A stretch of DNA of 64,000 nucleotides from an archaeon (GTDB taxonomy: Archaea; Undinarchaeota; Undinarchaeia; Undinarchaeales; JBDRKL01), in assembly GCA_043814055.1 (NCBI GenBank), contig JBDRKL010000012.1, positions 8,596-72,595 of the forward strand, in the 5' to 3' direction. How positions within the stretch are numbered: position 1 is the first letter of the stretch; each line of letters starts with the position of its first letter. The translations under genes were made by a program, and so were the position numbers. Under the pieces are notes generated by a model. That model saw only the letters and a program-made list of their open reading frames with translations. It made no database searches and had not been told where the DNA came from. This document shows positions 584 to 59,012 of the stretch, piece by piece.

Positions 584-660
584 CCATTGGTTAAAGCTCA
601 CGCTCAACTTTGGATCAATTCTAAAAAAATTTTAGAGTGGTCCCGCATAGAGTATGTATT

Positions 661-3610
<2,950 letters not shown>

Positions 3611-3828
3611 AAGTCTACGTCTATGCGGGACCAATGTTACATATTCCCGTGCAGACTAAAGCACGGAATGTAAGGCCGGTCATCGGGCATTGGGCTGTCG
3701 GGAGCCGTACCCTCGAGAACCTCTTCACTCCCACCCCAATAGATCTGGGAGTTGTGTCATCAATGAATTGATGATTGTGATTTCGAAGCGTGAGCTTCGA
3801 AAGACACCCAATTATTTGGGTGTGATGT

Positions 3829-4152
3829 TTAGTCAATTACCCGGCGAGCCACATCTTTTATTTTCTTCGCAGTGTCGTCGTGAAGGTCTTTTGCTGCTTT
3901 CGCTGCTTCGACCATTTTAGTAAGGAGCTTGTCTGCATCTGGCGCCTGCATTAGAGTATGAGATGCCAATGCATCGCTCTCTAGAGAGACTGCAGCTGTA
4001 AGTGCAAGATCTGTTCGGTTCAATGCCAAAATAAGGGACTCAAAATGTTCCCCTGCATCTCTGACATCCTTTTCAGATTCTGTAAGATCTTTTTCTACTT
4101 TGATTAGTGCATCTCTAAATGATTCAATTACTCTTTCTATATCTTCAGACAT
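3829..4152 (-). CDS. hypothetical 107-aa helical acidic protein encoded inside the tRNA-Ala/23S spacer
   Basis: Intact ORF on the same strand as the rRNAs. GAGGTGA lies 7 nt upstream of the ATG (rc of 4160-4166) and a CTTTAAAG box lies ~45 nt upstream. No motif recognised. Confidence 0.6.
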   Translation of the reverse strand: MSEDIERVIESFRDALIKVEKDLTESEKDVRDAGEHFESLILALNRTDLALTAAVSLESDALASHTLMQAPDADKLLTKMVEAAKAAKDLHDDTAKKIKDVARRVID

Positions 4153-4249
4153 TTTTATTTCACCTCGTTGATAGAGTTTCCTCTACTTAATTCTTTAAAG
4201 AACACGCCTTGTATCAGAGGGCGTTACTGCATTATGCAGCTTATTTGAC

Positions 4250-4331
4250 TATGATATGTGCCGAGCAAAGCGAGGCACACAAATTTCGCGTTAGCGAAAT
4301 TTCTTTTGGTCAAACTTTTCGTGAAAAGTTT
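4250..4331 (-). repeat. hairpin + TTGACCAAAAGAAA module (copy M1) directly after tRNA-Ala
   Basis: Minus strand: AAACTTTTCacgAAAAGTTT hairpin (4312-4331), TTGACCAAAAGAAA (rc of 4300-4313), then hairpins ATTTCGCtaacGCGAAAT and TGTGCC..GGCACA. Confidence 0.5.
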
Positions 4332-4334
4332 GAA

Positions 4335-4408
4335 TGGACCCAACGTGATTTGAACACGTGGCCTTCTGCTTGCAAAGCAGACGATCTACCGGACTGATCT
4401 ATGGGCCC
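4335..4408 (-). tRNA. tRNA-Ala (anticodon UGC), no intron, no encoded CCA
   Basis: Hand-folded cloverleaf GGGCCCA-TA-GATC..GATC-G-TCTGC-TTTGCAA-GCAGA-AGGCC-ACGTG-TTCAAAT-CACGT-TGGGTCC-A. The G3:U70 alanine identity pair is present. It sits at the canonical position between 16S and 23S. Confidence 0.92.
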
Positions 4409-4513
4409 AGTTTATGAACCCAGCCTCGGGCTCCAATATGATTATTATTGAGTGACCTGGTGAGAAAAAGACTCCCCCTGTTTAGCCCACAGACTTAGCT
4501 GTGGTGCTTTCTT

Positions 4514-5978
<1,465 letters not shown>

Positions 5979-6268: not shown

Positions 6269-6865
6269 TTACTTCAAAACCGTTCCTGTCTCGCAAAACC
6301 ACAAATACATGTCTAGTTCTGCAAGGTTCATGCCCAGAGTGTCAGCCAATTGCTTCAACTGGGCTTCAATCTCTAAATATCGTGTTCTGCTTAGCGATTT
6401 CGGCTTTTCAATTATGCCATGCACAGCGAGCAAATCAAGTATATGAAAGTCAATTATTGCATAATTCTCATACCCAATATTTCGTAAAAAATGGCTCGCC
6501 TCTTTCATGCCGAGGCCCTTCACATTTTGTACAAGCCAGTCGCGTTCTAAAACCAAATTGTCTTTGAGTTTTCTGGCGTTTACAATATAATTTGCTCTTG
6601 TATTTGGGAATCTATGACCGAGCTCCTTGAGCTTTTTCGCTAGTTGTTTCTCGCTGAGTTTTAGAAAGCCATCTCCAATTTCTTTTTGAATCCTAATCCC
6701 ACCCTCGGCTGTGTAATTCGCGGTGAGGATGCAGAAGCACAATTCTTTGAAAATTTCGTTGCTTGATTTTTTCCCAAGCGATTTGAACTCCTGTAGTCTT
6801 TCAGATATTTGCGAGCTTATATCGTTCGCTTTTAAATTTTCAACCCTGCAAATCAGCTCTTCCAT
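6269..6865 (-). CDS. ogg: N-glycosylase/DNA lyase, Ogg2-type 8-oxoguanine DNA glycosylase (HhH-GPD)
   Basis: 198 aa with a helix-hairpin-helix region, VKGLGMKEASHFLRNIGY, then IIDFHIL. Last gene of the oxidative-stress operon, overlapping dfx by 13 nt. Confidence 0.75.
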   Translation of the reverse strand: MEELICRVENLKANDISSQISERLQEFKSLGKKSSNEIFKELCFCILTANYTAEGGIRIQKEIGDGFLKLSEKQLAKKLKELGHRFPNTRANYIVNARKLKDNLVLERDWLVQNVKGLGMKEASHFLRNIGYENYAIIDFHILDLLAVHGIIEKPKSLSRTRYLEIEAQLKQLADTLGMNLAELDMYLWFCETGTVLK

Positions 6866-7227
6866 AACCCGTGCACGTTGCAGTATGCCTTGACAGTGTA
6901 GTTGTCGCCAATCTTGCAGAACTCCGCCTCAGGCGTATCCCCTGGCTTTAGGTGCTTTATTGTCATCTTGCCGTCTGCAATAATTTCAACCCACTCAATG
7001 TAGTGCTTTTCCTCCATCGGGTGCGGCACTTCGCCGACCTTTACGCGGATTTTTCCACCAACTTCTTCAACCACAGGCACGTGTTTCTCCTTGCCCTCGT
7101 CCTCGGTCTTCGCTACCTGGAGTTCCATGGGCTGGCCGCAGCAGATCAACTGGCCCACTCCGTCGTGCACTACAGCCACAATGTTGCCGCAGATATTGCA
7201 TTTGTAGAGTTCACCTTGGTTTGTCAT
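6853..7227 (-). CDS. dfx: desulfoferrodoxin (2Fe superoxide reductase)
   Basis: 124 aa. The N-terminal desulforedoxin Cys pattern is CNICGN...CCG. The C-terminal neelaredoxin-type domain has KHVPV...H...CNVHGLW. Confidence 0.85.
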   Translation of the reverse strand: MTNQGELYKCNICGNIVAVVHDGVGQLICCGQPMELQVAKTEDEGKEKHVPVVEEVGGKIRVKVGEVPHPMEEKHYIEWVEIIADGKMTIKHLKPGDTPEAEFCKIGDNYTVKAYCNVHGLWKS

Positions 7228-7742
7228 TTTAATCTCACCTCTGACAGTTCAAGATGGTCTTTTTCAACTTCTATGAAAGCTGTGAATATTTCCTTCACGC
7301 GCTCGTTGTCTGCTTCCGCAGCCGCTGCCTTGTAGAACTCTATCGCGCGAGTTTCTCTAGCGTGAGAATTCTCAAGGTTTTCTTTGTTCTCTACTGCGCA
7401 CTCGTCGTCCGCTTTCGGCACAGCATCAAGCTTGAGAATTTTTTTCCATACACTAGCATGCTCTGCCTCAACCTTGCCAAGAGCTTTGAAGAGTTTTTTC
7501 CCTTCCTCGTCATTAGTATCCTCGGCTGCGCAGAAATAAAATGCTGCATTACTGACTTCAACCTGCAGTGCCTTCTCAACATTTGCCTGGTCTTTCTCAG
7601 TCAGCTCAACGTCAAAGTTGACCTTCGCGTCCTGGATTTCCAGTATGTATTTCTTGTGCGCCCCGCAAAAAGGGCAGTTGTCCGGCGCAGACTCTCCGAT
7701 ATAGGGGTCTCCGCAAATTTCACATCTCCAAAGTTTTACCAT
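7224..7742 (-). CDS. rbr: reverse rubrerythrin (N-terminal rubredoxin-like CxxC..CxxC plus ferritin-like diiron domain)
   Basis: 172 aa with CEICGD...CPFCGA at the N-terminus and ExxH-type motifs (EAEHASVW, EVEKDHLE). AAGGAGGT SD precedes the ATG. Confidence 0.8.
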   Translation of the reverse strand: MVKLWRCEICGDPYIGESAPDNCPFCGAHKKYILEIQDAKVNFDVELTEKDQANVEKALQVEVSNAAFYFCAAEDTNDEEGKKLFKALGKVEAEHASVWKKILKLDAVPKADDECAVENKENLENSHARETRAIEFYKAAAAEADNERVKEIFTAFIEVEKDHLELSEVRLK

Positions 7743-7754
7743 TTTATTACCTCC

Positions 7755-7826
7755 TTACTTCTTTTTCTTAGTAACCTTCTTTTTCTTTTTGGTTGTGCAA
7801 CCACATCCGCATCCGCATTCTGGCAT
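7755..7826 (-). CDS. candidate 23-aa micro-ORF MPECGCGCGCTTKKKKKVTKKKK
   Basis: It fills the 89-nt gap between the Fur/PerR stop (7832) and the rbr start (7742). GGTGA lies 6-7 nt upstream of its ATG, and its stop overlaps the rbr SD (TAAGGAGGT). It is only visible as the tail of track ORF 7755..7976. Confidence 0.35.
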   Translation of the reverse strand: MPECGCGCGCTTKKKKKVTKKKK

Positions 7827-7831
7827 TTTAG

Positions 7832-8212
7832 TCACCGCCCTCCGCACTTTTTGCAAGTGCCGTGGAACATGATGCAGACGCAGTTCGCCGCGAAGTCTTG
7901 CTGGCTGAATTTTTTTAGCGCCTGCCTTGAAATTTCCTCTTGGAATGAATTGCATATTTTGTTGCATTTCCCGCACACACAGTGCTGGTGCGCGCAGGTG
8001 TTCCCATCGTAATGGTACTCGCTGTTTATCTCAAGCCGGAGTATTTCGCCGTGCTCAGCCATCTTGTTAAGGTTTCTGTAAACCGTGGCGAGCGTGATTG
8101 TGGGAATTTCCTTTTTCACTGCGGCGTGGACCATCTCTGCAGTTGGGTGTGTCTTGACGCTCTTGAGGTATTCAAGGATTTTGAGCTTCTGCGGGGTGTT
8201 TCTGCAGTTCAT
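7832..8212 (-). CDS. Fur-family (PerR-like) metal-dependent transcriptional regulator
   Basis: 126 aa with an N-terminal wHTH (ATVYRNLNKMAEHGEI), an HxH/CxxC metal site (HQHCVCGKC) and a C-terminal CKKCG. First gene of the peroxide/superoxide operon. Confidence 0.8.
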   Translation of the reverse strand: MNCRNTPQKLKILEYLKSVKTHPTAEMVHAAVKKEIPTITLATVYRNLNKMAEHGEILRLEINSEYHYDGNTCAHQHCVCGKCNKICNSFQEEISRQALKKFSQQDFAANCVCIMFHGTCKKCGGR

Positions 8213-9723: not shown

Positions 9724-9798
9724 TGCCCCAGCCGGGATTCGAACCCGAGTCTCCGCCTTGAAAGGGCGGAATGATTGGCCGGACTACACCACCGGGGC
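9724..9798 (-). tRNA. tRNA-Glu (anticodon UUC)
   Basis: GCCCCGG-TG-GTGTAGTCCGGCCAATCAT-TCCGCC-CTTTCAA-GGCGGA-GAC-TCGGG-TTCGAAT-CCCGG-CTGGGGC-A. No intron and no encoded CCA. Confidence 0.9.
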
Positions 9799-9990
9799 AG
9801 GTTTTTACCAATGTGCACCGAGATACAAAGCTTTTTTCGTCAACGTTTTTGCGAAGCAAAAAGGTTGGACTTCACACCACCGGGGCAACTTTATGTGCGC
9901 CAGGCAATGTACTTTTCTTTTGGTCAAGCTTTTCTTCGTAAAGAAAAGATTGCCGTTGAGTACACCACCGGGGCAACTTTAAGCTATAGG
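9799..9990 (-). repeat. two tandem 88-bp units, each starting with a copy of the tRNA-Glu 5' end (GCCCCGGTGGTGT)
   Basis: The exact 13-mer occurs at 9786-9798 (real tRNA), 9874-9886 and 9962-9974, a spacing of exactly 88 and 88 nt. Each unit has the tRNA 5' fragment, an A/T hairpin, TTGAC(C/G)AAAA, and a ~41-45 nt spacer. Confidence 0.8.
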
Positions 9991-10022
9991 GAGTATGCAT
10001 TAACGAATTTAAAGGTTGCTAT

Positions 10023-10098
10023 TTAGTTCAACTTGCTTGGTAGTTCCGTAGCATCACAAATGTAATGCGGAACCGCGTGTCAACTTCGCGAGAAGTTG
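10023..10098 (+). repeat. R-family two-hairpin element (copy R3)
   Basis: TAGTTCAACTTGCTTGGTAGTTCCGTAGCATCACAAATGTAATGCGGAACCGCGTGTCAACTTcgcgagAAGTTG. It is homologous to 26251-26327, with compensatory stem changes. Confidence 0.6.
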
Positions 10099-10101
10099 TA
10101 A

Positions 10102-10213
10102 TGGGCCCGTCGTGATTCGAACACGAGACCTCACGCTTTCGCAAGCGTGCCCGCATTTTGTGCGGAACACAGCCATATAAGGCGTGCGCTCCACCAGGCT
10201 GAGCTACGGGCCC
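10102..10213 (-). tRNA. tRNA-Ile (anticodon UAU) with 38-nt intron at 37/38 (intron about 10138-10175)
   Basis: GGGCCCG-TA-GCTC-AGCCTGGTG-GAGC-G-CACGC-CTTATA|intron|A-GCGTG-AGGTC-TCGTG-TTCGAAT-CACGA-CGGGCCC-A. The GGGCCCGTAGCTCAG start is typical of archaeal tRNA-Ile. The anticodon TAT reads from 10179-10177. Confidence 0.8.
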
Positions 10214-10349
10214 AAACTTTTATTTAGCCTATGGTTTTGGTTTCCGATGAACTGACCCGATAAGGCCGCAGCATCACCAAAGTGATGCGGCCTAACGCCC
10301 CTCCGCCGCTGTGCGGAGAGCTCCACGGGCCCAAACTTTTATTTAGCCT
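10206..10349 (-). repeat. 25-nt perfect direct repeat (10206-10230 and 10325-10349) bracketing a 94-nt R-family insertion (copy R4, 10231-10324)
   Basis: ACGGGCCCAAACTTTTATTTAGCCT occurs twice. It comprises the last codons and stop of ileS, 6 nt, and the first 8 nt of tRNA-Ile. The intervening sequence holds the hairpins GGCCGCAGCATCACcaaaGTGATGCGGCC and CTCCGCcgctgtGCGGAG. Confidence 0.85.
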
Positions 10350-13269
10350 TGTCAAACCCAATGCTTATCTCCTTGTCCTCGAATTTGCACTCGCCGGAAA
10401 CTTTTGCTTTTACTGGTAGTTCGGCTATATCAATCTTTTCAGCGCCGACTTTCAGCACGATTTCCTCGCGGAACTTGTTCAGTGCCCTGCGTGCAAATTC
10501 GTCTGAACTGGAGAATGTGACGTTGATTTTCTCATCAACCTTGAATTCGTTCTTCTTTCGCAACACCTGGACTGCGCGCATTACCTCGCGGGCTAGCGCT
10601 TCTTCCAGAATTGCTGGGGTGAGCTCGTTGTCCAGCACGAGCTTGCCGAACTCAAATTCTTTTTCAATTCCTTTTGTGCTTCCTGCCTTGAGCTCTTTCA
10701 CATTTGCCTGTGTTTTTATGACTTGCTCAAATGTTTTCAAGGCCTTCTTGACTTTGTCATCACCTTCAACTGCTAGAGTCTTGAGCGGCCAGCGGAGTTT
10801 TACTTTTGCTTCCTCGCGGGCAAAGAATGATGCTTCCACAATGCTGCGCGCGATTTTCATTTCTTCCTCAAGCTTTGCGTCTATTTTCTTTGAGTCCGGT
10901 TTTGGCCAGCTGAGCATGTGGATTGATTCCGGAGCTTTCTTGTCCAAAGGTTTTACAATTGCCTGGTATAGTTCCTCTGTGAGTATTGGGAGGATTGGCG
11001 CGGCTAAAATAAGGTACTGCTTGAGCACGTCATACAAGACCTTGAAAGCTGTGAGCTTGTCCGAGCCCTTTGCCGAAACCCAGGTTCGGTCGCGTATTAA
11101 TTTAATATACCAGCGCGAGAGATCCTCAACCATAAAGTCGCGCAGGAGCGGCGGAGCGTCAGGGAATTCCATATCCTCAAACGCCTGCGTAACCTGCTGG
11201 TTTAGAGTATTTATTCTTGAGATTATCCACTTGTCCTCGGGCTTGAGCTTTTTCGTGTCAAGCTTGAACTCTTCTGGGTTGAAGCCTTCAACATCCATGT
11301 ATTTCGCGAACTGCGCAACGTTCCAGAGAATGTTCAACGCTTTGTAAGCCTCGTCCATGTCTTTCCAATTCACGCGCAGGTCTTCGCCAGACCGCGAAGC
11401 TCCGAGGCAGTAAAGCCTCCAGGCTTCTGAGCCGATTTTTTCAATTACTTCAGAAGGTTCAATTACATTGCCAAGTGATTTTGACATCTTCGCGCCTTTC
11501 TCGTCCGAGATAAAGCCGTGCATGTAAACGTTCTTGTAAGGAGTTACGCCGTGAGAGACCATTGAGAGGCAGAGCTGAGAGTTGAACCAGCCGCGGATTT
11601 GATCCTTTCCTTCTGTGATGAAATCTGCAGGCCAGAGCTTCTTGAACTCCGTTTCATCTTTTGGGAATCCGAGCGATGCCCAGGTCGCTGCGCCTGAGTC
11701 CAGCCACACGTCAAGAATGTCCGGGATTCTGCGCATTTCCTTGCCGCACTCTTCGCACTTGAATGTTACCTTGTCAACGTGAGGCCTGTGGAGCTCTTTC
11801 ACGTCTGCATTGAGCTCTGCGCGTGAGCCGATTACTTTCACGTGGTTGTTCTCACAGCGCCAAATTGGCAATGGAATGCCCCAGTATCGTTGTCTTGAAA
11901 TGCACCAGTCCTGAATGTTCTCAAGCCAGTCGCGGAACCATCGCTCGCCAGCCCAGTCCGGACTCCACTTGACTTTCTTGTTCTCCGCAATGAGCTTATC
12001 CTTCATTTTTGAAACGCCGAGATACCACTGCTCTGTGGCTCTGTAAATAATCGGAGACTTGCAGCGCCAGCAGTGCGCGTACTCGTGCGAAACAGGGGTT
12101 TTCATCGCGAGAATTCCTTTTTCCTTGAGAACGTCAATGAATTTCGTGTTGTCCTTGCTCGCGTTCCAGCCTTGGTATTTCCCGCCGAGCTCGTTGAAGT
12201 CCCCGTTCTCTTCAACAACTGTAAATGCTGGAATGTCCAATTTCCTGCCAACATCAAAGTCCTCTGCGCCGCAGCCAGGGGCTGTGTGCACGCAACCTGA
12301 GCCTGCGCTGAGAGTTACGAAACCGTAGAACATCTCGTCTGAGACCGGCTGGATTGTGTAGGCGTTCGGGTATTTCTTGTGCATTTCCTCATGGACTGGC
12401 ATGTCCCCTGCGAATGGGTTGACATATTCAATTCCTTTCAGTTCACTGCCTTTCAGGGTTTCAACAACCTCGTACTTCTTCTCCATCATACCCATCAATG
12501 CAATTACGAACGGCTTTGCAAGAATCCAATACTCGTCTCCGACTTTGATTTTTGCATAGTCAAAATCAGGGTGCACCGCGACCATCATATTCATCGGGAG
12601 CGTCCAAGGTGTGGTTGTCCAGATTAAAACATACTCGTTCTTTTTTCCGCGGAGCTGGAACTTGACGTAAACTGAAGAGTCTGTTACTGTTTCGTATTCA
12701 AGCTCGTGCTTCGCGAGCGCAGTTGCGCAGCGCCAGCACCAGGTGACTGAGCGCGGGCCTGTGAAGAGAAGACCTTTGTCATGTGCTTTTTTGAGCGCCC
12801 ACCAGGCGCCTTCAATATAGGAGTCGTCAATTGTGCGGTATGGCTTGTCCCAGTCCATCCACACGCCGAGCCGGGCGAACTGCTCATTCATCTTCGCGAG
12901 ATTGTCAAGCGCGAATTTCCTGCAGTTGTCAATGAACTTGTCCATGCCAACGCCGGTTTCAATTTCTTTCTTGTTCTTGATGCCCATCAGCTCTTCAACT
13001 TTCACTTCAATCGGTAGGCCGTGCATGTCGTAGCCCGGCTGGGACCTGACGCTGTAGCCCTGCATTCGCTTGTAGCGCAGAATTGAATCCTTGAGAACTT
13101 TGTTCCAGGCGGTTCCAAGGTGGATGTTCCCGGTTGTGTATGGCGGGCCATCGTTGAAGTACCATTTCTTGTCCTTCTCGTGGAGCTTCTGGACTTTTTC
13201 AAAAATTTTCCCGTCTTTCCAGTACTTGAGAATCTTTTCCTCGGTTTCCTGCGGCTTGAATTGTTCCAT
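10339..13269 (-). CDS. ileS: isoleucyl-tRNA synthetase
   Basis: 976 aa with class I motifs PPYTTGNIHLGTAWN (HIGH-type) and KGAKMSKSLGN (KMSKS), plus a CP1 editing-domain-sized insertion. Confidence 0.95.
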   Translation of the reverse strand: MEQFKPQETEEKILKYWKDGKIFEKVQKLHEKDKKWYFNDGPPYTTGNIHLGTAWNKVLKDSILRYKRMQGYSVRSQPGYDMHGLPIEVKVEELMGIKNKKEIETGVGMDKFIDNCRKFALDNLAKMNEQFARLGVWMDWDKPYRTIDDSYIEGAWWALKKAHDKGLLFTGPRSVTWCWRCATALAKHELEYETVTDSSVYVKFQLRGKKNEYVLIWTTTPWTLPMNMMVAVHPDFDYAKIKVGDEYWILAKPFVIALMGMMEKKYEVVETLKGSELKGIEYVNPFAGDMPVHEEMHKKYPNAYTIQPVSDEMFYGFVTLSAGSGCVHTAPGCGAEDFDVGRKLDIPAFTVVEENGDFNELGGKYQGWNASKDNTKFIDVLKEKGILAMKTPVSHEYAHCWRCKSPIIYRATEQWYLGVSKMKDKLIAENKKVKWSPDWAGERWFRDWLENIQDWCISRQRYWGIPLPIWRCENNHVKVIGSRAELNADVKELHRPHVDKVTFKCEECGKEMRRIPDILDVWLDSGAATWASLGFPKDETEFKKLWPADFITEGKDQIRGWFNSQLCLSMVSHGVTPYKNVYMHGFISDEKGAKMSKSLGNVIEPSEVIEKIGSEAWRLYCLGASRSGEDLRVNWKDMDEAYKALNILWNVAQFAKYMDVEGFNPEEFKLDTKKLKPEDKWIISRINTLNQQVTQAFEDMEFPDAPPLLRDFMVEDLSRWYIKLIRDRTWVSAKGSDKLTAFKVLYDVLKQYLILAAPILPILTEELYQAIVKPLDKKAPESIHMLSWPKPDSKKIDAKLEEEMKIARSIVEASFFAREEAKVKLRWPLKTLAVEGDDKVKKALKTFEQVIKTQANVKELKAGSTKGIEKEFEFGKLVLDNELTPAILEEALAREVMRAVQVLRKKNEFKVDEKINVTFSSSDEFARRALNKFREEIVLKVGAEKIDIAELPVKAKVSGECKFEDKEISIGFDKAK

Positions 13270-26250: not shown

Positions 26251-26327
26251 GTAGTTTGACTTGCTTGGCAGTCCCGCAGCATCACAAACTTAACGCGGGA
26301 CAATTTGTCAACTGAATTTGCAGTTGT
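26251..26327 (+). repeat. R-family two-hairpin element (copy R1), abutting the tRNA-Asn 5' end
   Basis: GTAGTTTGACTTGCTTGGCA-GTCCCGC-agcatcacaaacttaac-GCGGGAC-aatttgt-CAACTGaatttgCAGTTG-t. Hairpin 1 is 26271-26301 and hairpin 2 is 26309-26326. Confidence 0.65.
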
Positions 26328-26477: not shown

Positions 26478-26556
26478 AGGCAAACAAATAGCTTGGCAGT
26501 CCCGCAGCATAACAAACTTAACGCGGGACAATTTGCCGGCGTAATTTGACGCCGAT
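26478..26556 (+). repeat. R-family two-hairpin element (copy R2), 3' of tRNA-Asn
   Basis: GGCAAACAAATAGCTTGGCA-GTCCCGC-agcataacaaacttaac-GCGGGAC-aatttg-CCGGCGtaatttgaCGCCG. Hairpin 1 is nearly identical to R1, and hairpin 2 has a completely different but still complementary stem. Confidence 0.65.
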
Positions 26557-26651
26557 TTATGCAAAAACCTGAATAATTTGAATAGAAAGGAAAAATCCAG
26601 AAAGATTTAAAAACTCAACCGCCATATGAGGCAATCTAAATAGGCTAAGCA

Positions 26652-29055: not shown

Positions 29056-29197
29056 AAAAAATGGCCCGGGTAGTTCATTGGCAACCTTTTTCTTTTCACA
29101 AAAGAAAAAGCTCGAACGCGCACAGCGCGTTGAGCAACTCGCTGTCGCGAGTTTGTTTGACCAAAAAGAAAACTTCGGACCGATTTGCGAAAAAAAT
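29056..29197 (+). repeat. 135-bp unit beginning with a 20-nt copy of the tRNA-His start region (pseudo 5' fragment), then a hairpin module (copy M4)
   Basis: AAAAAATGGCCCGGGTAGTT occurs at 29056-29075 and again at 29191-29210, where it is the real tRNA start. After the first copy comes CATTGGCAACC + CTTTTTCTTTTcacAAAAGAAAAAG + two GC hairpins (29110-29135, 29136-29153) + TTGACCAAAAAGAAAA (29157-). Confidence 0.8.
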
Positions 29198-29273
29198 GGC
29201 CCGGGTAGTTTAGTGGTTAGAATTGGAGACTGTGGATCTTCAGACGCGAGTTCAATTCCCGCCCTGGGCCCCA
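29198..29273 (+). tRNA. tRNA-His (anticodon GUG) with genome-encoded G-1, C73 and CCA
   Basis: G(-1)-GCCCGGG-TA-GTTTAGTGGTTAGAAT-T-GGAGA-CTGTGGA-TCTTC-AGAC-GCGAG-TTCAATT-CCCGC-CCTGGGC-C-CCA. One A.C mismatch in the T stem. Confidence 0.85.
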
Positions 29274-29276
29274 TTC

Positions 29277-29360
29277 AACCTTTTTTCCCTTGCGATTGGG
29301 GGAAAAAGCTTGACCAAAAATCAGGGGCGTTCGCTCGCTACGCTTGCGAAGCCCCACTTC
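29277..29360 (+). repeat. hairpin + CTTGACCAAAAA module (copy M5) plus a 32-nt GC hairpin in the hisS leader
   Basis: AACCTTTTTTCCCttgcgattGGGGGAAAAAG-CTTGACCAAAAA (29309-29320), then GGGGCGTTCGC..GCGAAGCCCC (29324-29355). Confidence 0.6.
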
Positions 29361-29378: not shown

Positions 29379-30668
29379 ATGGATAAATTTGAAGCCACCC
29401 GCGGAATGAGGGATTTCCTTCCAGAGGAGATGGAGAAGAGAAGGTATGTTATTGATATTATTAGGACGACCTTCAAGACCTATGGCTTTGGCGAGATTTG
29501 GACTCCTGCGCTTGAGAGCCTTGGGCTGCTAAGCGCAAAGAGTGGAGGCGGGGACGAGATTGCAAAGACAATATTCACGCTCAAGGACCAAGGAGGAAGG
29601 ATGCTCGGGCTCAAGTTTGACCAGACTGTTCCAACCTCAAGGGTTATCGCGAACAACCCGCAGCTTACAAAGCCATTCAAGCGATTCATAATCAGCCCGG
29701 TTTGGAGGTATGAGAGACCGCAAGCAGGGCGATATAGGGAATTCTGGCAGGCGGATGTGGATATTTTCGGCTCGAAAAACCCAGAGGCAGATGTTGAGAC
29801 TGTTGCGTGCACAGCCGCTGTTCTTACTGCGCTTGAGTTTGAGGAGTATGAGATAATCATAAACAACAGAAAACTGCTCAAGGGGCTTGCGATGCAGTTC
29901 GGATTCAAGGAGAACCAGGTTGTGGACCTGCAGAGGTGCATTGACAAGCTGGACAAGAACAGCGAGGGTGAAGTTGTGCGCGAAGCAGCTGAGAAAGGGC
30001 TTGACGAGGACTTGGTAAGGGACTTTATAGCCACGATAAGCATGGAAGGGAAGCCGGAGGATGTTTTGAAAAAGATAAAGCCAAGTTTGAAAGATACACT
30101 TGCGCTGGAAGGGCTTGGCGAACTAGAGGAGTTTATTTCACTTTCAAAGCCGTATGGCATTTATGAGAAGCTCAAGCTGAACTTGAGCATGGTAAGAGGC
30201 TTGGATTATTACACCGGCACGATTTTTGAGTTCAAGGCAACTGACGCCAAGATTGGCTCGTTTATGGGCGGCGGAAGGTTTGACAAGCTTGTTTCAGCTG
30301 CAGGCGGAGAAGCGATTGCAGCCACCGGGCTTTCAATAGGCGTGGACAGGCTTGTTGAAATTTTGAGAACTAAAGAGAAACTCAAGGCAAGCGGCGGGTG
30401 CAGGGTTCTTGTAGGCTATTTCCCTAACTGCAGGGAGAAAGCAATTGAGATTGCGCAGGGATTGAGGAAGGCTGGGGTTGAAACTGATTTTGACACAAAG
30501 CGCAGGAGCGTTTCAAAAGTTCTGGACTATGCGAACGCGAAGAAGATTCCTTACGTGGTTCTTGTTGGAGAGAAAGAGCTGAAGGAGAACAAGGTTGCGC
30601 TTAAGAATATGGAAACAGGAGAGCAGAAGTTGGTTAAGGAGAGCGAGCTGTTAAAAAGTTTAAAGTAG
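29379..30668 (+). CDS. hisS: histidyl-tRNA synthetase (complete, with anticodon-binding domain)
   Basis: 429 aa with class II motif 2 VWRYERPQAGRYREFWQ, the HisRS motifs RGLDYYTG and GGGRFDKL, motif 3 ATGLSIGVDR, and a C-terminal alpha/beta anticodon-binding domain. AGGTGAT SD. Confidence 0.9.
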   Translation: MDKFEATRGMRDFLPEEMEKRRYVIDIIRTTFKTYGFGEIWTPALESLGLLSAKSGGGDEIAKTIFTLKDQGGRMLGLKFDQTVPTSRVIANNPQLTKPFKRFIISPVWRYERPQAGRYREFWQADVDIFGSKNPEADVETVACTAAVLTALEFEEYEIIINNRKLLKGLAMQFGFKENQVVDLQRCIDKLDKNSEGEVVREAAEKGLDEDLVRDFIATISMEGKPEDVLKKIKPSLKDTLALEGLGELEEFISLSKPYGIYEKLKLNLSMVRGLDYYTGTIFEFKATDAKIGSFMGGGRFDKLVSAAGGEAIAATGLSIGVDRLVEILRTKEKLKASGGCRVLVGYFPNCREKAIEIAQGLRKAGVETDFDTKRRSVSKVLDYANAKKIPYVVLVGEKELKENKVALKNMETGEQKLVKESELLKSLK

Positions 30669-30935: not shown

Positions 30936-31508
30936 TTGAAAGAGCCAGCAGTAGAACTTTTAAAAAAGGCAGGTTTGATTCTTGGCGAGAATGGGAGGTG
31001 CCTGAGCAACAAGGTAGAGGGGGAGAATATTGTTGTGCAGTCTTTCAGGGCAAAGGACATTCCGCTCTATATTGCAGAGGGCGCTGTGGATGTGGGAATT
31101 ACAGGATATGACATTTGGAAAGAGTCCAGATTAGAGCTGAAAGAATTGCTTGACCTGAAATTCGGTTACTGCGACTTGATTTTGGCAGGGGTGGCTGGGA
31201 AAAAAATAAAGAGAGGGGTGAGGGTTGGAACTTCATTTCCCATGCTTACTGCAAATTACTTCGCAAGGCAGGGAATCGCAGCGAGGATTATTGAAGTTTC
31301 AGGCGCAGTTGAGATTCTTCCAAAGTTAGGAATTGCCGATTTTGTAGTTGACTTGACCAGCACGGGCGCCACCTTGAGGGAGAACGGGCTGGTTGTGCTT
31401 GACAAAATTTTGAGCTCTTCAGCAAGATTGCTGTGCAGGCGGATGAAAGAAAAAAACGTAAAATTTGCTGAGCGACTCAGGGAGGTTATTGAAAATGAAA
31501 ATTTATGA
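30936..31508 (+). CDS. hisG: ATP phosphoribosyltransferase, short form (true start probably upstream at a non-canonical codon, 30891-30918)
   Basis: 190 aa from the TTG. The conserved HisG N-terminus ILGIPNKGRL is encoded in-frame just upstream of that TTG. PRPP-binding DLTSTGATLRENGL is present. There is no C-terminal regulatory domain, so this is the short form. Confidence 0.85.
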   Translation: MKEPAVELLKKAGLILGENGRCLSNKVEGENIVVQSFRAKDIPLYIAEGAVDVGITGYDIWKESRLELKELLDLKFGYCDLILAGVAGKKIKRGVRVGTSFPMLTANYFARQGIAARIIEVSGAVEILPKLGIADFVVDLTSTGATLRENGLVVLDKILSSSARLLCRRMKEKNVKFAERLREVIENENL

Positions 31509-32772
31509 GATGGGGGAAGTCCCGAAAACAATAATGATGCGAGCTAAGACTGACGTTGACTCTGTTAAAGAAAGTGTAGGAGAAACAATAAAAAATATCA
31601 GAAAAAATGGGGATACAGCGCTTCGCAAGTATACTGAGAAGTTTGACAGGGTTTTGATAGAGGATTTCAAAACCAGTGAGGACGAGATTAGGGAAGCATA
31701 TGAGGAGATAGATCCGCTTGTTCTTGAAAAAATCAAAGAGCAAATTGAGTATTCAAAAAAGTTCGCGAGCGCAGACAAGAAGAATTTAAAAGAGGAGTGG
31801 AGCGTTCAGCTTGGGGAAGGAATTGAAGGTGGTTTGAAACTTACTCCGATTGAAAGTGTTGGGCTCTACGTGCCAGGCGGGAAAAACCCGTTCCCGACTG
31901 TGATGCAGATTCTTGCGATTCCTGCAAAGATTGCTGGGGTGGAGAAGATTGTTGCGTGCACTCCACCACAGAAAGACGGAAAAATACTAGCAGAGGTTTT
32001 GGTTGCTGCAGATTTGTGCGGCGTGGATGAGGTTTACAAGATGGGCGGGGCGCAGGCAGTTGCTGCTTTTGCTTACGGGACTGAGAGCGTGCCAAAGGTT
32101 TTGAAAGTTGTGGGGCCGGGGAATCCATATGTTACTGCTGCAAAGCTGCTGTGCTTTGGGGAAATTGGGATTGACATGCCAGCAGGACCGAGCGAAGCAT
32201 TGATTATTGCAGATGAAGGCGCAACTCCAAGTTGGCTTGCAGCAGATATCCTTGCAAGGGCAGAGCACGGACCGGATTCTGCCGCTGTGCTTGTAACCTG
32301 GAAAAGGGAAATTGCTGAGAAAACCTTGGAGGAAGTTGGAAGGCAGAAGAAAGAGCGTTCAAGGCAGGAGTATATTGAAACTGCGCTAGAAAAATACTGC
32401 GCGGTTGTTCTTGTCAAGGATTTAAGAGAAGCTGTTGATTTTGCAAACGAATATGCTCCGGAGCACTTGGAGCTACAGGTGGAGAGCCCAAGAGAGATTC
32501 TGCCCTTGATAAATAATGCAGGGTCAGTGTTTCTCGGTTATTACAATCCAGTGGCTGTTGGCGACTACGCAAGCGGCGTGAACCACATATTGCCAACCGG
32601 TCAGTGGGCCAAGATGTTCTCGCCTGTAAGCGTTGAGACATTTATGAAGCGCGTGCAGTTTTCGTATGTGAACAAAACCGGGCTTGAGAAGCTGAAAGGA
32701 ATTGTTGACACGATTGCTGATATTGAAGGTTTGGACGCGCACAGGGAGAGCGTAGATATTAGGCTCCGCTGA
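31495..32772 (+). CDS. hisD: histidinol dehydrogenase
   Basis: Track ORF trimmed to the ATG at 31495 (GGGAGG 10-15 nt upstream). 425 aa with ARAEHGPDSAAVLVT and SVFLGYY..VAVGDYASGVNHILPT. Confidence 0.9.
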   Translation: MKIYEMGEVPKTIMMRAKTDVDSVKESVGETIKNIRKNGDTALRKYTEKFDRVLIEDFKTSEDEIREAYEEIDPLVLEKIKEQIEYSKKFASADKKNLKEEWSVQLGEGIEGGLKLTPIESVGLYVPGGKNPFPTVMQILAIPAKIAGVEKIVACTPPQKDGKILAEVLVAADLCGVDEVYKMGGAQAVAAFAYGTESVPKVLKVVGPGNPYVTAAKLLCFGEIGIDMPAGPSEALIIADEGATPSWLAADILARAEHGPDSAAVLVTWKREIAEKTLEEVGRQKKERSRQEYIETALEKYCAVVLVKDLREAVDFANEYAPEHLELQVESPREILPLINNAGSVFLGYYNPVAVGDYASGVNHILPTGQWAKMFSPVSVETFMKRVQFSYVNKTGLEKLKGIVDTIADIEGLDAHRESVDIRLR

Positions 32773-32801
32773 GAACAGCGGGGTTCGATTGGAGGTGAAA
32801 A

Positions 32802-33407
32802 ATGAAAATTGAGGAAAAAAGGAAGACCAGCGAGTCTGAAATAAAAGTGGTTTTGGAAGATGGTCAGAGAAGAGATATGAAAATTGATACTGGCTTGAAC
32901 TTTTTGAACCACCAAGTGAAGCAGATAGCGTGGCGGCTGTGCATGAACATAGACGCGAGCATAAAGAACACAACTGAGTACAGGAGCACGCACACGATGT
33001 CAGAGGATTTGGGAATAGTGCTAGGCAGGGCTTTGCTCAAGATGTACGAACAGAAAGCAAAAGAAGGTGTGAATGGGTTCGGCGCAGCGTATGGAGTGAT
33101 TGACGAGGCGCGGGCTTTCGCAGCGGTGAGCATAGAAGGCAGGGCAAACTCGTTTGTGGAGATGTGCCCTGAAATTGAGCGGCTTGAACTTGTTGAGGAT
33201 ATGCTGTGCTGGGACTTGGTCGCATTCCTTGAAGGGCTTGCGCAGGGCATGAAAGCAACTGTGCAGGTGAACATTGAGCGTGGCAGAGACCCCCACCACT
33301 CCTGGGAAGCTACGTACAGGGCACTCGGAGAGGCGCTCAAAATAGCACTTCAGAAGAATGAATGGAGGAAAGGCACAATTGCAGGAGTAAAAGGAACACT
33401 AGAATGA
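32802..33407 (+). CDS. hisB: imidazoleglycerol-phosphate dehydratase
   Basis: 201 aa with RGRDPHHSWEATYRALGEAL (the second His-His-x-x-Glu motif) and an upstream TGLNFLNHQ. Confidence 0.8.
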   Translation: MKIEEKRKTSESEIKVVLEDGQRRDMKIDTGLNFLNHQVKQIAWRLCMNIDASIKNTTEYRSTHTMSEDLGIVLGRALLKMYEQKAKEGVNGFGAAYGVIDEARAFAAVSIEGRANSFVEMCPEIERLELVEDMLCWDLVAFLEGLAQGMKATVQVNIERGRDPHHSWEATYRALGEALKIALQKNEWRKGTIAGVKGTLE

Positions 33408-34063
33408 AAGCTGTAATTTTTGACATGGACGGGGTGCTGGTCAAGGAGGACCGGTACTGGAAAGTGGCCAGTGAAGTGGCATTTGACCTAGCGGGGAGAA
33501 GGATTCCTTTTGCTTTCGTTCAAGAGTGCAAAAGCAGGGGAATGAATTCAAACTGGGAAATCTGCTACGAGTTCGTCAAAGGGACTGGGATTGATTATGA
33601 AGGAGTCAAAGAACTTTTTCAGAAAAAGTTGGCAGAATTAAATCCAAAAAATGAGCTTGTAATAAGTAGAGAGGCTTTCCTTGATGTTTTCTTTAGCCTG
33701 AAGCCCTTGTACTCAATGTACATAGCGACCAGCAGACCGAGGAAAGAAGCGCTGGAGGCGGTTGAGCAGACTGTTCTTTCAGAATTTTTCAATGAGGATT
33801 CGGTTTATGGAATGGAAGATGCCGCACCTGAGAAAAATCTGAAAGAAGCCCTGTTCTCCATGGTCAGGGAGAAAAACAAATTAGGGGACTGCATCGTGGT
33901 TGGGGATACTGTTTCAGATGTCCTGGCAGGAAAGCGCCTTGGGTTCATGGCAGTTGGAGTTTATGGCAGTTTGGACAATAGGGCAGACCTTGAAAAAGCC
34001 AGGGCGGATATTTTGGCAGAGAACCTATCGGAGCTTTGGATTTTGTTGGATGGAATCAAATGA
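33404..34063 (+). CDS. HAD-superfamily hydrolase, candidate histidinol-phosphate phosphatase
   Basis: ATGA overlap with the hisB stop. MKAVIFDMDGVLV (HAD motif I) and VVGDTVSDVLAG (motif IV). Its position inside the his operon suggests the missing phosphatase step. Confidence 0.6.
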   Translation: MKAVIFDMDGVLVKEDRYWKVASEVAFDLAGRRIPFAFVQECKSRGMNSNWEICYEFVKGTGIDYEGVKELFQKKLAELNPKNELVISREAFLDVFFSLKPLYSMYIATSRPRKEALEAVEQTVLSEFFNEDSVYGMEDAAPEKNLKEALFSMVREKNKLGDCIVVGDTVSDVLAGKRLGFMAVGVYGSLDNRADLEKARADILAENLSELWILLDGIK

Positions 34064-34731
34064 AAATTTATCCTGCAATTGATTTGCTTGGCGGAAGAGC
34101 AGTGCAATTGGTTGGCGGAGATCCAACTAAGCTTTTGTTTAGCAGGGATGCTCTTGAGCAGGCTGAGAAATTCAAAGAAGTGACCTTGTGGCTGATTGAT
34201 TTGAATTCTGCACTAGGCAATGGATCTAACCTCAAACTTATAAAAAAAATACTCACTAAAAGCCCTGCTTGCGTTGGAGGAGGCATTCGAACCATAGAAA
34301 AAGCCAATGAAATGTTAGAAGCAGGGGCTGAAAAAATAATCATTGGAACAAAAGCAGTTGAAGACCCTGAGTTTTTGAAAAACTTCGATCCAGAAAAGGT
34401 GATAGTTGCACTTGACTGCAAGAAGGGGAAAGTATGCATTGATGCGTGGCAATCTGAGACTGGGCGCGAAGTTGAAGACATTGGAGCAAAATATTACCTT
34501 GTAACAAATATTGATGTTGAGGGACGGCAGGAAGGACTTGACTTTTCTTTTGTTGAGAATGTTTTGGACAAATTGCCTAATGTGATAATTTCTGGCGGAA
34601 TTTCTTCCCCAGAAGATGTTTTTAAAATTAAAAAAATGGGCGCGTACGGTGTCGTTATAGGCAGCGCGCTTTATTCTGGAAAAATAAAACTTGAGGAGGT
34701 TTTAAATGAAAAAAATAATGCCATGCCTTGA
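34060..34731 (+). CDS. hisA: ProFAR isomerase
   Basis: ATGA overlap with the HAD gene. MKIYPAIDLLGGRAVQLVGG, then ...VIISGGISS...GVVIGSALY. Confidence 0.88.
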   Translation: MKIYPAIDLLGGRAVQLVGGDPTKLLFSRDALEQAEKFKEVTLWLIDLNSALGNGSNLKLIKKILTKSPACVGGGIRTIEKANEMLEAGAEKIIIGTKAVEDPEFLKNFDPEKVIVALDCKKGKVCIDAWQSETGREVEDIGAKYYLVTNIDVEGRQEGLDFSFVENVLDKLPNVIISGGISSPEDVFKIKKMGAYGVVIGSALYSGKIKLEEVLNEKNNAMP

Positions 34732-35455
34732 CACTTTTGATGGAAAGCTTGTCAAAGGCGTGAAGTTTGAGATAAACAAAGAATTTGGAGACCCAGTAGA
34801 GTATGCAAAGAAGTATTGTGAAGATGGTGCTGACGAGCTTGCTGTGCTGGACATTAACGCGACTCCTGAAGGGAGAGCTACATTGCTCGAGGTTGTGAAG
34901 AACATTTCAGCAGTGTGCACTGTGCCGCTCACAGTTGGGGGCGGAATACGGAGTGTTGAAGAGATTGAAAAAGTGCTTGATGCAGGCGCTGACAAGGTTT
35001 CAATAAACACCGCTGCTGTGAATCGACCTGAGTTGATTAAAGAAGCTGCTGAAAAATTTGGCTCTGAAAAAATTGTTGTAGCAATTGACTTCACCAAGAA
35101 AGATGGAACTTGGAAAGTGCTTGTTAATGCAGGAAAAACAATTGTTGACAAAGACGTGATTGAATGGGCCAAAGAAGCTGAGGAGTTGGGCGCAGGAACT
35201 TTGCTTCCAACTAGTTTGGATGCTGATGGGACAAAAAAGGGCTTTGATTTAGAGGCAACCCGGCTGATAAAAGAGTCTGTTTCAGTGCCAGTAATCGCAA
35301 GTGGCGGCGCAGGAACTCTTGAGGACATGTACAAAGTGCTGACAGAGGGTAAAGCGGATGTTGCATTGGCAGCAAGTATTTTCCACTACGGAGAATACAC
35401 AGTACGGGATGTCAAGAAGTATCTAAAAGAAAAAGGAGTTGAGGTGAATCTATGA
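34706..35455 (+). CDS. hisF: imidazole glycerol phosphate synthase cyclase subunit
   Basis: 249 aa with [27 protein letters not shown] and VIASGGAG. Confidence 0.92.
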
Positions 35456-36009
35456 ATTTGAAACCAGTTATTGCTCAGGACGCCAGCACAAAAGAAGTGC
35501 TTATGCTAGCGTGGGCCAATGAAGAAGCGCTTGAGAAAACAAAGGAAACCGGGTATGCCTGGTATTGGTCAAGAAGCAGAAATAAACTGTGGAAGAAGGG
35601 TGAGAGCTCAGGAAATGTGCAGAAGATTGTTGAGGTTATGGAAGACTGTGACAAGGATGCTCTGCTGTACATTGTTGAGCAGAAAGGAAATGCCTGCCAC
35701 ACTGGGAAATATTCCTGCTTCAAAAAGGAAAAACCATTTACGCTTGAAGTTTTGGAAAAAGTGATTGAGCAGAGGAAGCTGGAGAAACAAGAAGGCAGTT
35801 ATACTGTGAAGCTTTTGGAGGATGAGGAATTGGCGTGTGAGAAAGTTTTGGAAGAGGCAGGAGAAGTTGTGCAGGCGGTGAAGAAAGAGGGAAAACAGAG
35901 AACAATTGAAGAGGCCGCTGACGTGCTGTATCACTTGATGGTTTTGCTCGCTGGGAAAGGTATAAAATGGATAGAGGTTGTTGGGGAATTAAGCAATAGG
36001 TCTAAATAA
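35452..36009 (+). CDS. hisI: bifunctional PR-AMP cyclohydrolase / PR-ATP pyrophosphatase
   Basis: 185 aa. HisI part: [17 protein letters not shown]...CDKDALL...GNACHTG..SCF. HisE part: EEAGEV......[14 protein letters not shown]. Confidence 0.88.
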
Positions 36010-40479: not shown

Positions 40480-40481
40480 CC

Positions 40482-40562
40482 GAGCGTTAGCGAAGCTCCG
40501 AATCGCTCTGCGATTCGTTTTTTGGTCAAGCTTTTTTCACAAATATAACCAATAAAAAGGTT
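40482..40562 (-). repeat. hairpin + CTTGACCAAAAA module (copy M6), no downstream gene on its strand
   Basis: Minus strand: AACCTTTTTattggttatatttgtgAAAAAAG-CTTGACCAAAAAAC + GAATCGCagaGCGATTC + GAGCttcgctaacGCTC. Confidence 0.55.
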
Positions 40563-40669
40563 GTCTCAGATCGCCCATCACTCATCACCTTATCAGATCG
40601 ATGTCGGATCTTCATTGACAGCTTATGTTAATAAATAAACTAATATAAATAGTGTTTTAAGTTGCGGTT

Positions 40670-58897: not shown

Positions 58898-58902
58898 TAC
58901 AA

Positions 58903-59012
58903 CCTTTTTCCGCGAAGGCGCGCAAAAAGCTCAAACACACAAAGTGTGTTGAGCAACACGCTGTCGCGTGTTTGCTTGACCAAAAAAATTCGCTTCGCTC
59001 GAAAGGTAGAAT
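58903..59012 (+). repeat. hairpin module (copy M7): CCTTTTT..AAAAAG hairpin, two covarying GC hairpins, then CTTGACCAAAAAAA
   Basis: AACCTTTTTCCGCGAAGGCGCGCAAAAAG + GCTCAAACACACaaaGTGTGTTGAGC (58929-58954) + AACACGCtgtcGCGTGTT (58955-58972) + TGCTTGACCAAAAAAA. TTGACC lies 37 nt before the ATG at 59013. Confidence 0.65.

Follow-up and report, generated by a model that had tools for sequence, protein, structure and literature searches.

Why should the first nucleotides of a transfer RNA (tRNA) gene stand three times in a row, at exactly equal distances, when only one intact gene follows? The question is raised by the tRNA-Glu(UUC) locus in a window of 64,000 nucleotides (nt) of DNA from an uncultured archaeon, the window being the whole stretch that was analysed. 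On the minus strand the 13-mer GCCCCGGTGGTGT occurs at 9786–9798, 9874–9886 and 9962–9974, with start-to-start distances of 88 and 88 nt; an earlier note on this DNA had drawn attention to this spacing, and it holds. The chance expectation is 0.02 matches, and three copies were reached in 0 of 100 shuffles. Only the last copy belongs to an intact tRNA. The two extra copies, which we call decoy starts, both lie upstream of tRNA-Glu in the gene's own orientation. We favour, with a probability of roughly one half, the interpretation that the two 88-bp units are the footprints of two short insertions into the 5' part of tRNA-Glu, after position 13 in the D-arm. The features of the locus are as follows.

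9724–9798, minus strand: intact, intron-less tRNA-Glu(UUC), found by ARAGORN and by Rfam (55.9 bits, full-length match to the tRNA model; the ends are called at 9723 or 9724 and at 9798 or 9799).
9786–9798, minus strand: third repeat copy, the first 13 nt of tRNA-Glu, from the sequence.
9799–9873, minus strand: unit B cassette, 75 nt between the 13-mers, with the T5 hairpin TTTTTGC-ttc-GCAAAAA (9846–9862) and TTGACGAAAA (9834–9843), from sequence and fold.
9823–9838, minus strand: weak lineage-type promoter-like box in unit B, GAAAAAAGCTTTGTAT, ending 24 nt before the tRNA +1.
9874–9886, minus strand: decoy start 2, an exact copy of tRNA-Glu positions 1–13; the 7 nt upstream (to 9893) are as in decoy 1.
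9887–9961, minus strand: unit A cassette, 75 nt, with the hairpin CTTTTCTT-tacg-AAGAAAAG (9929–9948), CTTGACCAAAAGAAAAG (9912–9928) and AGTACATTGCCTGGCGC (9897–9913), from sequence and fold.
9962–9974, minus strand: decoy start 1, an exact copy of tRNA-Glu positions 1–13 plus A14, at the ancestral tRNA start, as judged from alignment of the upstream region with relatives L105 and L083.
10004–10017, minus strand: the sole canonical lineage-type promoter, AACCTTTAAATTCG, a motif shared with relatives, whose TATA-like TTTAAAT ends 32 nt before decoy 1.

The two units are built alike. Each decoy is followed by 10–13 nt, a T/A-rich hairpin, the motif TTGAC(C/G)AAAA (TTGACCAAAA at 9918–9927 in unit A, TTGACGAAAA in unit B) and a spacer of 41–45 nt to the next G+1. 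The earlier note had described hairpins with different but complementary stems, distances of 41 and 45 nt between the motif and the next start, and units that had diverged from each other while keeping one layout, and all of these observations were borne out. Alignment shows the 75-nt segments to be homologous (z = 4.5, p = 0.0015), and their interiors are about 60% alike, sharing GGYGCACAT beyond the generic features of the modules described below. The two decoys are identical over 20 nt (9874–9893 and 9962–9981), made up of TAAAGTT and the 13-mer, while the exact match to the real start covers 14 nt for the middle decoy and 15 nt for the outer one. The edges of the repeats are sharp. An assembly artefact is unlikely, because the repeats are far shorter than assembly k-mers and because comparable structures recur in independent JGI, ENA and NCBI assemblies, with an identical one in samples L083 and L084.

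The window is archaeal, with archaeal rRNA in a 16S–tRNA-Ala–23S operon at 655–5977. Homologues of its isoleucyl-tRNA synthetase (IleRS) put it among the Undinarchaeota, a DPANN lineage: the closest proteins are 61–75% identical, with cluster mates named Candidatus Undinarchaeales and Naiadarchaeum, after which identity drops to 49%. When a genome collection was scanned with IleRS, the matches were limited to bacteria and to relatives no more than 46% identical. Orthologous regions were obtained from nine further Undinarchaeota contigs through homologues of IleRS, a membrane protein and histidyl-tRNA synthetase (HisRS). About 20 kb was examined per relative, for a total of about 236 kb in 10 contigs, and L105 is the closest relative obtained.

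A single tRNA-Glu start is present in every relative read (L082, L083 and its duplicate L084, L085 and L105). The promoter and leader that precede decoy 1 in the window can be aligned with those of tRNA-Glu in L105 and L083, and the canonical motif at 10004–10017 also stands upstream of tRNA-Glu in these two relatives and upstream of other genes. Two origins had been offered for the repeats. Serial insertion at one tRNA 5' site fits best, because the relatives have a single start, the upstream region is orthologous, the edges are sharp and the arrangement recurs at other tRNA genes. Duplication of a promoter together with the tRNA start is not supported; the only lineage-type promoter (AACCTTTAAAT, 10007–10017) lies upstream of the first decoy. 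The motif TTGAC(C/G)AAAA is the distal end of a directional T/A-hairpin module. Its reading as a bacterial –35 box was rejected: a sigma-70 scan gave no site in the units, and the host is archaeal. The scan for a bacterial promoter or intrinsic terminator likewise gave no match in the units. Short abortive transcripts from the first decoy, also proposed earlier, are plausible, because a canonical promoter stands 32 nt before it and T-runs come after it (T4CT3 at 9941–9948 and T5 at 9858–9862).

The tRNA-Glu gene itself varies in another way. It carries a T-loop insertion of 100 nt in L083 (15506–15680, plus strand) and of 48 nt in L105 (9793–9915, plus strand), and since the copies in the window, L082 and L085 are without one, the presence of this intron varies among close lineages.

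An alternative that the 88-nt period brings to mind is a decayed tandem array of three tRNA-Glu genes, in which a 75-nt gene and a 13-nt spacer make up each 88 nt and the upstream two genes have degenerated internally. The period is indeed near the length of a tRNA plus a short spacer; the units measure 79 and 73 nt from the decoy +1 to a discriminator-like A following CTGGCGC or CGGTGC, and another organism (L091) does have two genuine tRNA-Glu genes in tandem at a similar spacing. The interiors of the units, however, show no similarity to the tRNA body beyond that of shuffles (z about 0; a second alignment test gave a combined p = 0.11), and the Rfam tRNA covariance model leaves the units undetected even at E = 5–10, so that whole-tRNA copies in decay were ruled out both statistically and by the covariance model. 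Decay that erased the tRNA body should also not have spared 13–20 nt exactly, non-tRNA bases included. The cases at tRNA-Ile and tRNA-His described below cannot be whole-gene arrays, as their repeats begin in the IleRS open reading frame (ORF) or in the leader and their inserts are module-like. We therefore regard such an array as improbable.

The layout of promoter, 5' fragment, tail of 11–14 nt and T-run also resembles that of the 5' genes of split tRNAs, and the decoys might be 5' pieces whose 3' counterparts are encoded elsewhere and ligated to them in trans, an arrangement known from Nanoarchaeum or Caldivirga. The lineage belongs to DPANN and its tRNA genes contain large non-canonical introns, which would suit such a reading. 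Against it, an intact tRNA-Glu (55.9 bits) lies directly downstream, where a split tRNA has no contiguous gene, and a canonical promoter is found at decoy 1 only. The complement of the decoy tails (ACTCAACGGCAAT, GAAGTCCAACC) was not found within the 64-kb window. A split after position 13 is, to our knowledge, not among the known positions at which tRNAs are split. We consider this explanation very improbable indeed, the least probable of those weighed here. A tRNA intron with a bulge–helix–bulge was tried and rejected as well, for the downstream copy is complete without splicing and the junction sequences are identical, not complementary.

Context for the tRNA-Glu units comes from other tRNA genes. 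A scan of the window for exact direct repeats of at least 14 nt within 400 nt returned tRNA loci only, namely Glu, Ile, His and Asn, and similar structures were read in the relatives.

10102–10213, minus strand: tRNA-Ile(UAU) with a 39-nt intron (Rfam, 53.7 bits).
10206–10349, minus strand: tRNA-Ile decoy structure, an exact 25-nt repeat at 10206–10230 and 10325–10349, spacing 119 nt.
29056–29210, plus strand: tRNA-His decoy structure, an exact 20-nt repeat AAAAAATGGCCCGGGTAGTT at 29056–29075 and 29191–29210, spacing 135 nt.
L082, tRNA-Asn: repeat of 15 nt, spacing 86 nt.
L086, tRNA-Ile(UAU): repeat of 18 nt, spacing 79 nt.
L083 and L084, tRNA-Leu(CAA): repeat of 32 nt of the 5' half, spacing 166 nt.
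L083, tRNA-Asn: serial pseudo-3' ends downstream of the gene.
L171, tRNA-His: repeat of at least 10 nt at the contig edge, the contig beginning within the decoy; read directly.

At tRNA-Ile, the 25-nt repeat begins in the IleRS ORF, whose final 11 nt it takes in together with the stop codon, and runs on through a 6-nt spacer into tRNA positions 1–8; it encloses a 94-nt insert with two hairpins (10231–10324); the ORF ends at 10339. In L081/L105, L082, L083 and L085 the IleRS stop codon is overlapped by tRNA-Ile(UAU) or separated from its start by no more than a few nt, and in L087 a small ORF lies between the two. In the window it is the decoy (10325–10332) that takes the place next to the stop codon, with the real gene 119 nt further on, behind a purposeless copy of the IleRS tail (11 nt, stop codon included). 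The real tRNA-Ile and the 17 bases upstream of it are thus the displaced copy, which is direct proof of the direction of change at this gene, because the decoy sits at the IleRS stop just as tRNA-Ile does in the relatives. At tRNA-His, the cassette is 115 nt long (29076–29190) and contains the hairpin CTTTTTCTTTTcacAAAAGAAAAAG, two further hairpins, TTGACC and AAAAAGAAAACTTCGG, the last ending about 20–25 nt before the real start; what precedes the decoy in the window (AGCTTTAGCTGTAAAATT) is matched in L172 by the sequence ahead of its single real start. As the relatives have single starts and the promoter or the IleRS stop codon adjoins the first decoy, the comparison shows a common picture for Glu, Ile and His, with the decoy at the ancestral start and the insert derived.

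Some further observations concern these loci. Both genes neighbour their cognate synthetases: tRNA-Ile(UAU) (10102–10213, minus strand) comes directly after IleRS (10339–13269, minus strand), and tRNA-His (29199–29270) directly before HisRS (29379–30665) and the his biosynthesis operon (30936–36006), all on the plus strand. The UAU anticodon in tRNA-Ile is unusual for archaea. In L081 (5675–5689) the IleRS stop codon lies inside tRNA-Ile, where excision of the tRNA from a shared transcript would remove the stop from the mRNA; in L086 (12918–12936) it lies inside the decoy start, which thereby preserves it. In L172 (9673–9775, plus strand) a promoter motif, CCAAACCTTTAAAT, is duplicated upstream of tRNA-His with its copies 89 nt apart, and in L170 (11287–11348, plus strand) a 19-nt hairpin repeat, AGAAGGGATTGCCTTCACC, occurs as two copies 43 nt apart after HisRS, with a related copy upstream of tRNA-His. 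The tRNA-Asn gene of the window has a 45-nt element on both sides. Two serial pseudo-3' ends follow tRNA-Asn in L083 (1900–2090, minus strand), one being GGAGCGCCACTC and the other a degenerate 3' half with the exact 15-mer GTCGGGGGCGCCACT at its end, a layout typical of classical attachment (att) site remnants.

Across the sampled contigs, local exact repeats of at least 18 nt are associated with tRNA genes in six of seven instances (five overlap a tRNA end and one flanks tRNA-Asn), and about 8 of the 31 tRNA genes carry such repeats, which are not expected by chance at this length. The same gene has been hit independently, since tRNA-Ile is interrupted after position 8 by a GC-hairpin insert in the window and after position 11 by a T/A-hairpin insert in L086. 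With the exception of the tRNA-Leu event at position 34, all 5' events fall at tRNA positions 8–14, which indicates that the D-arm region is a hotspot of insertion. A metagenome scan for two 13-mers 55–85 nt apart gave 16 hits, all irrelevant, being tandem repeats in coding sequence and one genuine tandem tRNA-Glu pair, and it yielded no further case of the Glu arrangement.

A direct repeat of part of a target tRNA on either side of an insert (14, 15 and 20 nt at Glu, 25 nt at Ile, 20 nt at His) is what integrated genetic elements leave behind, and partial tRNA duplications (attL/attR) flanking integrative viruses, plasmids and islands are well known from archaea, one example being a 5' fragment in Caldiarchaeum (PMC9897764, PMC3293823). 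One could thus suppose that an integrase-bearing virus or plasmid inserted twice in tandem at an att site in the tRNA 5' end and that deletion, in a small genome, left only the att-proximal arms, terminator-like by the left repeat and promoter-like by the right. The serial pseudo-3' ends at tRNA-Asn in L083 are of the classical type, and between the window and L171 the outer blocks of the His cassette agree while the middle differs, as independent internal deletions would predict. Nevertheless, a Pfam scan found no integrase, transposase or other mobile-element gene among 44 ORFs scanned across the window, the ORFs with Pfam matches being housekeeping genes. All eight inserts are 61–140 nt long, with no ORF inside and none on the kilobase scale. 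The repeats hold host-specific non-tRNA bases, such as the IleRS tail, and parts of the cassettes match intergenic modules of the host, for example 58948–58986 at 92%. No integrase or recombinase gene lies between or beside the repeats, and IMG/VR, in which the viruses of this lineage may be unsampled, holds no matching attP: the double 13-mer, the repeats at Glu and His and the hairpin of the His cassette met only chance matches in bacterial phage coding sequence, or none.

Known integrative elements such as SSV1, pNOB8-type plasmids, PYG1 and TKV resemble the tRNA-Glu locus in that a direct repeat of a tRNA piece flanks the insert, one gene remains complete beside a fragment, and serial events can occur. 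They differ in that their inserts are 9–23 kb long with an integrase and other element genes, compared with 61–140 nt and no gene in the Undinarchaeota, and in that their repeats usually span about 40–50 nt of the 3' half, compared with 14–32 nt here that comprise leader, tRNA positions 1 to 8–14 and non-tRNA bases of the host. The tRNA-Thr-F of Caldiarchaeum subterraneum is closer in arrangement, with a 5' fragment, inserted DNA and then the complete tRNA-Thr-II, and was taken by its authors to be a stage in the disruption of a tRNA gene (Sugahara et al. 2012; PMC3293823). Its insert is 1.8 kb long and encodes a recombinase, unlike the 75-nt hairpin cassette at tRNA-Glu, which is present in two tandem copies without a recombinase. 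On balance, we think it rather unlikely that the units are eroded arms of a larger element.

Two usual marks of a transposon or miniature inverted-repeat transposable element (MITE) are missing. Repeat lengths vary (14, 15, 18, 20, 25 and 32 nt), where a fixed-length target duplication would be expected, and the inserts have no common terminal inverted repeats beyond their internal hairpins. As for dispersed copies, module types recur, and the specific His blocks (the CTTTTTCTTTTcacAAAAGAAAAAG hairpin and AAAAAGAAAACTTCGG) have no second copy in the 236 kb, being found at the tRNA-His locus only.

Parts of the inserts recur elsewhere in host DNA. The T/A hairpin with its CTTGACCAAAA core is a directional module that always lies in the sense of the preceding gene; it follows tRNA-His, fibrillarin, a C/D-like small RNA and, within the rRNA spacer, tRNA-Ala, and it is also found in the tRNA-Ile insert of L086. 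The core of unit A resembles the modules at 4300–4320, 29304–29319 and 40520–40535. Hairpins 2 and 3 of the His cassette are 92% identical to the module after fibrillarin (58948–58986), and the tRNA-Ile insert of the window is a copy of a separate two-hairpin element that also abuts tRNA-Asn and the 3' end of tRNA-Ile. Introns draw on the same material: the tRNA-Leu(CAA) intron of L105 (16993–17231, minus strand; about 150 nt at position 37/38) begins with a complete T5-containing hairpin module, which is either read through or effectively splits the gene, and in L083 (18188–18330, plus strand) tRNA-Leu(CAA) has a short homologous intron together with the upstream 32-nt duplication of its 5' half. 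These modules cannot be efficient terminators, because one that contains T5 sits within an intron and upstream of tRNA-His; the term 'terminator-like' describes their form only.

The modules were also catalogued in their own right. T/A hairpins with CTTGACCAAAA lie at 4290–4330 (minus strand), 29280–29320 (plus strand), 40480–40545 (minus strand) and 58896–58990 (plus strand), and are often followed by further GC hairpins, the stems of which have compensatory changes between copies. The two-hairpin family, of about 75–95 nt, lies beside tRNA genes at 10030–10101, 10231–10324, 26255–26327 and 26480–26560, all on the plus strand. The loop of its hairpin 1, AGCATCAC(A/C)AA, is kept while the stems covary, the stems of hairpin 2 are fully swapped, and the copies that flank tRNA-Asn are identical at 44 of 45 nt; Rfam has no match to this family. 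A candidate C/D-box small RNA (ATGAAGA..CTGA..GTGATGA..CTGA), with no Rfam call, lies just upstream of a T/A-hairpin module at about 40560–40625 (minus strand). Elsewhere, next to the rRNA operon, an oxidative-stress gene cluster (6269–8212, minus strand) comprises rubrerythrin-like and desulfoferrodoxin-like ORFs, recognized by eye, and a Fur-family regulator (Pfam), and fits an anaerobic lifestyle.

Serial cassette insertion would have proceeded as follows. Each event would have added a hairpin cassette of about 70 nt and duplicated its target, consisting of leader bases and tRNA positions 1–13; at tRNA-Glu the duplications would run from –7 to +13 (20 nt) once and from –1 to +13 (14 nt) once. 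The duplication would regenerate an intact tRNA downstream and leave the old start upstream as a decoy. The cassettes were probably drawn from the pools of hairpin modules in the flanks and introns of stable-RNA genes of the Undinarchaeota, and may be spread by a recombination or transposition process that favours tRNA positions 8–14. Expression of the real tRNA-Glu would rely mainly on read-through from the ancestral promoter, with RNase P removing a leader of about 185 nt; we infer read-through because long structured leaders are normal in this lineage, that of tRNA-Asn being about 120 nt. The box GAAAAAAGCTTTGTAT, 24 nt before +1, may add some expression (the corresponding spacing at tRNA-Glu of L082 is 23 nt), and the T4CT3 and T5 runs after the decoys may cause partial termination, with short decoy transcripts as by-products. 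Such a history accounts for the sharp edges, the identical non-tRNA bases in the repeats, the presence of TAAAGTT in the decoys only, the lack of units in the relatives and the independent hits on the same tRNA. The identical non-tRNA bases number 7 in the 20-nt decoy repeat and 17 in the Ile repeat, and set against unit interiors that are only about 60% alike they give the repeats a young look.

Several observations weigh against this history. Target duplications that vary between 14 and 32 nt fit no known transposase, and no enzyme was found. Two independent insertions do not predict the equality of the 88-nt spacings (the inserts deduced are 68 and 74 nt), and the shared GGYGCACAT together with that equality suggests that one unit may have been duplicated, an idea that meets its own misfit in interiors about 60% alike beside an exact 20-nt repeat. 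The His cassette is common to the window and L171, whose HisRS proteins are 64% identical. Between these two, blocks of 25 nt (the hairpin) and 17 nt (AAAAAGAAAACTTCGG) are perfectly conserved, while the middles are unrelated and the spacers diverged, and at both positions where the tRNAs differ each genome's decoy agrees with its own tRNA-His. L170, with a HisRS 90% identical to that of L171, is without the cassette, and the 236 kb contain no second copy of the His blocks. This mosaic looks like the outcome of long-term selection and concerted evolution, as though the cassette were a functional element and not a passive scar. The pattern may represent either an old selected element with concerted evolution of its repeats or independent arrivals of related cassettes.

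These points bear on another view, that the units are maintained RNA modules, in which a closing helix would use the copy of the tRNA 5' strand as an acceptor-stem mimic or minihelix. Such a leader could act as a processing signal for RNase P or tRNase Z, as a self-quenched terminator–promoter insulator or as a regulator of an operon of tRNA and aminoacyl-tRNA synthetase, and the 88-nt units would have arisen by tandem duplication and been kept by selection. Folding is better than in shuffles for unit A (z = –3.95; 0 of 200 shuffles), the L086 unit (–3.49), Ile (–2.8), Asn of L082 (–2.8) and His (about –2.5). The predicted fold pairs the decoy with a stretch 3' of the hairpin, the partners being G.U-rich and resembling the 3' acceptor strand of a tRNA; in unit A, AGTACATTGCCTGGCGC is able to pair with decoy 1. 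The His hairpin and A-rich box are identical across the HisRS divergence given above and the decoy tracks its own tRNA. An A-rich box stands 21–27 nt before the real +1 in four cassettes, at the distance of a TATA box, and units A and B are homologous and of equal length.

On the other side, the units are dispensable, the Glu units being present in no relative examined and the His unit absent from L170. The pairing of decoy and partner in a direct duplex test is significant for L086 only (p = 0.002), borderline for unit A (p = 0.053) and without significance in the remaining units; it was rejected as a general rule and is suggestive at most. The failure of the Rfam tRNA model to detect the units applies here too. 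The A-rich box is unlike the TTTAAAT promoters of the lineage, and the fold of unit B is no better than chance (z = –1.5). The His sharing, the equal spacing and the folding keep a structured leader or minihelix in consideration, as an unlikely but still serious alternative. With a similarly low expectation, we can imagine an undescribed class of miniature tRNA-targeting cassettes in the Undinarchaeota, each combining a hairpin with an A-rich box under a cap that copies the 5' strand of the tRNA exactly. Such cassettes would be homogenized with the tRNA start, would work as acceptor-stem mimics, terminator–promoter insulators or both, and would be living intermediates through which intact tRNA genes of DPANN archaea become intron-bearing and split.

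Two further systems help to place serial cassette insertion, the interpretation that we prefer. Recently split tRNA genes with adjacent halves are known in the Desulfurococcales, for example tRNA-Asp of Aeropyrum pernix (Chan, Cozen and Lowe 2011; PMC3218864). The likeness lies in about 100 nt of DNA placed inside a tRNA gene and able to separate transcription of its 5' part, and in tRNA loci as hotspots of rearrangement. In the split genes, though, nothing is duplicated and the halves are trans-spliced through a bulge–helix–bulge, whereas tRNA-Glu has a duplicated 5' part ahead of a complete gene, and the window offers no complementary anchor.

Bacterial repetitive extragenic palindromic (REP) elements, bacterial interspersed mosaic elements (BIMEs) and other miniature hairpin repeats are short, directional intergenic hairpin modules that follow genes and have conserved flanks, covarying stems and modular combinations. 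The cassettes share with them the directional hairpins after genes, the conserved flanks and the variable, covarying stems. They differ in that no RAYT- or IS200-like gene was seen in the window and that the copy number per cassette type is low in the sampled DNA. We know of no REP element that inserts into tRNA genes with long target duplications.

A search of the literature on tRNAs in the Undinarchaeota found no description of decoy-start cassettes. The structures differ from known tRNA-end duplications in scale (less than 150 bp, without genes), in position (the leader and the first 8–14 nt), in content (hairpin modules of host type) and in their frequency within one lineage.

The origin of introns, fragments and splits in archaeal tRNA genes is a long-standing question, for which current models lean on a few mobile-element integrations on the kilobase scale. 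Here, a DPANN lineage has fresh-looking insertions of less than 150 bp with duplication of a gene end in roughly one in four of the tRNA genes sampled. The hairpin modules that make up the inserts are also found in tRNA introns, which bears on how archaeal tRNA genes become interrupted. The lineage offers natural pairs of loci before and after the event, such as tRNA-Ile, which can be compared across seven genomes, and tRNA-Leu, which has either an intron cassette or a duplicated 5' half, and with many such pairs the process of disruption is therefore open to reconstruction and test. In practical terms, decoy starts can mislead the annotation of tRNAs and promoters in metagenome-assembled genomes. 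If the cassettes are functional, they would constitute a new type of cis element for the expression of stable RNAs in archaea.

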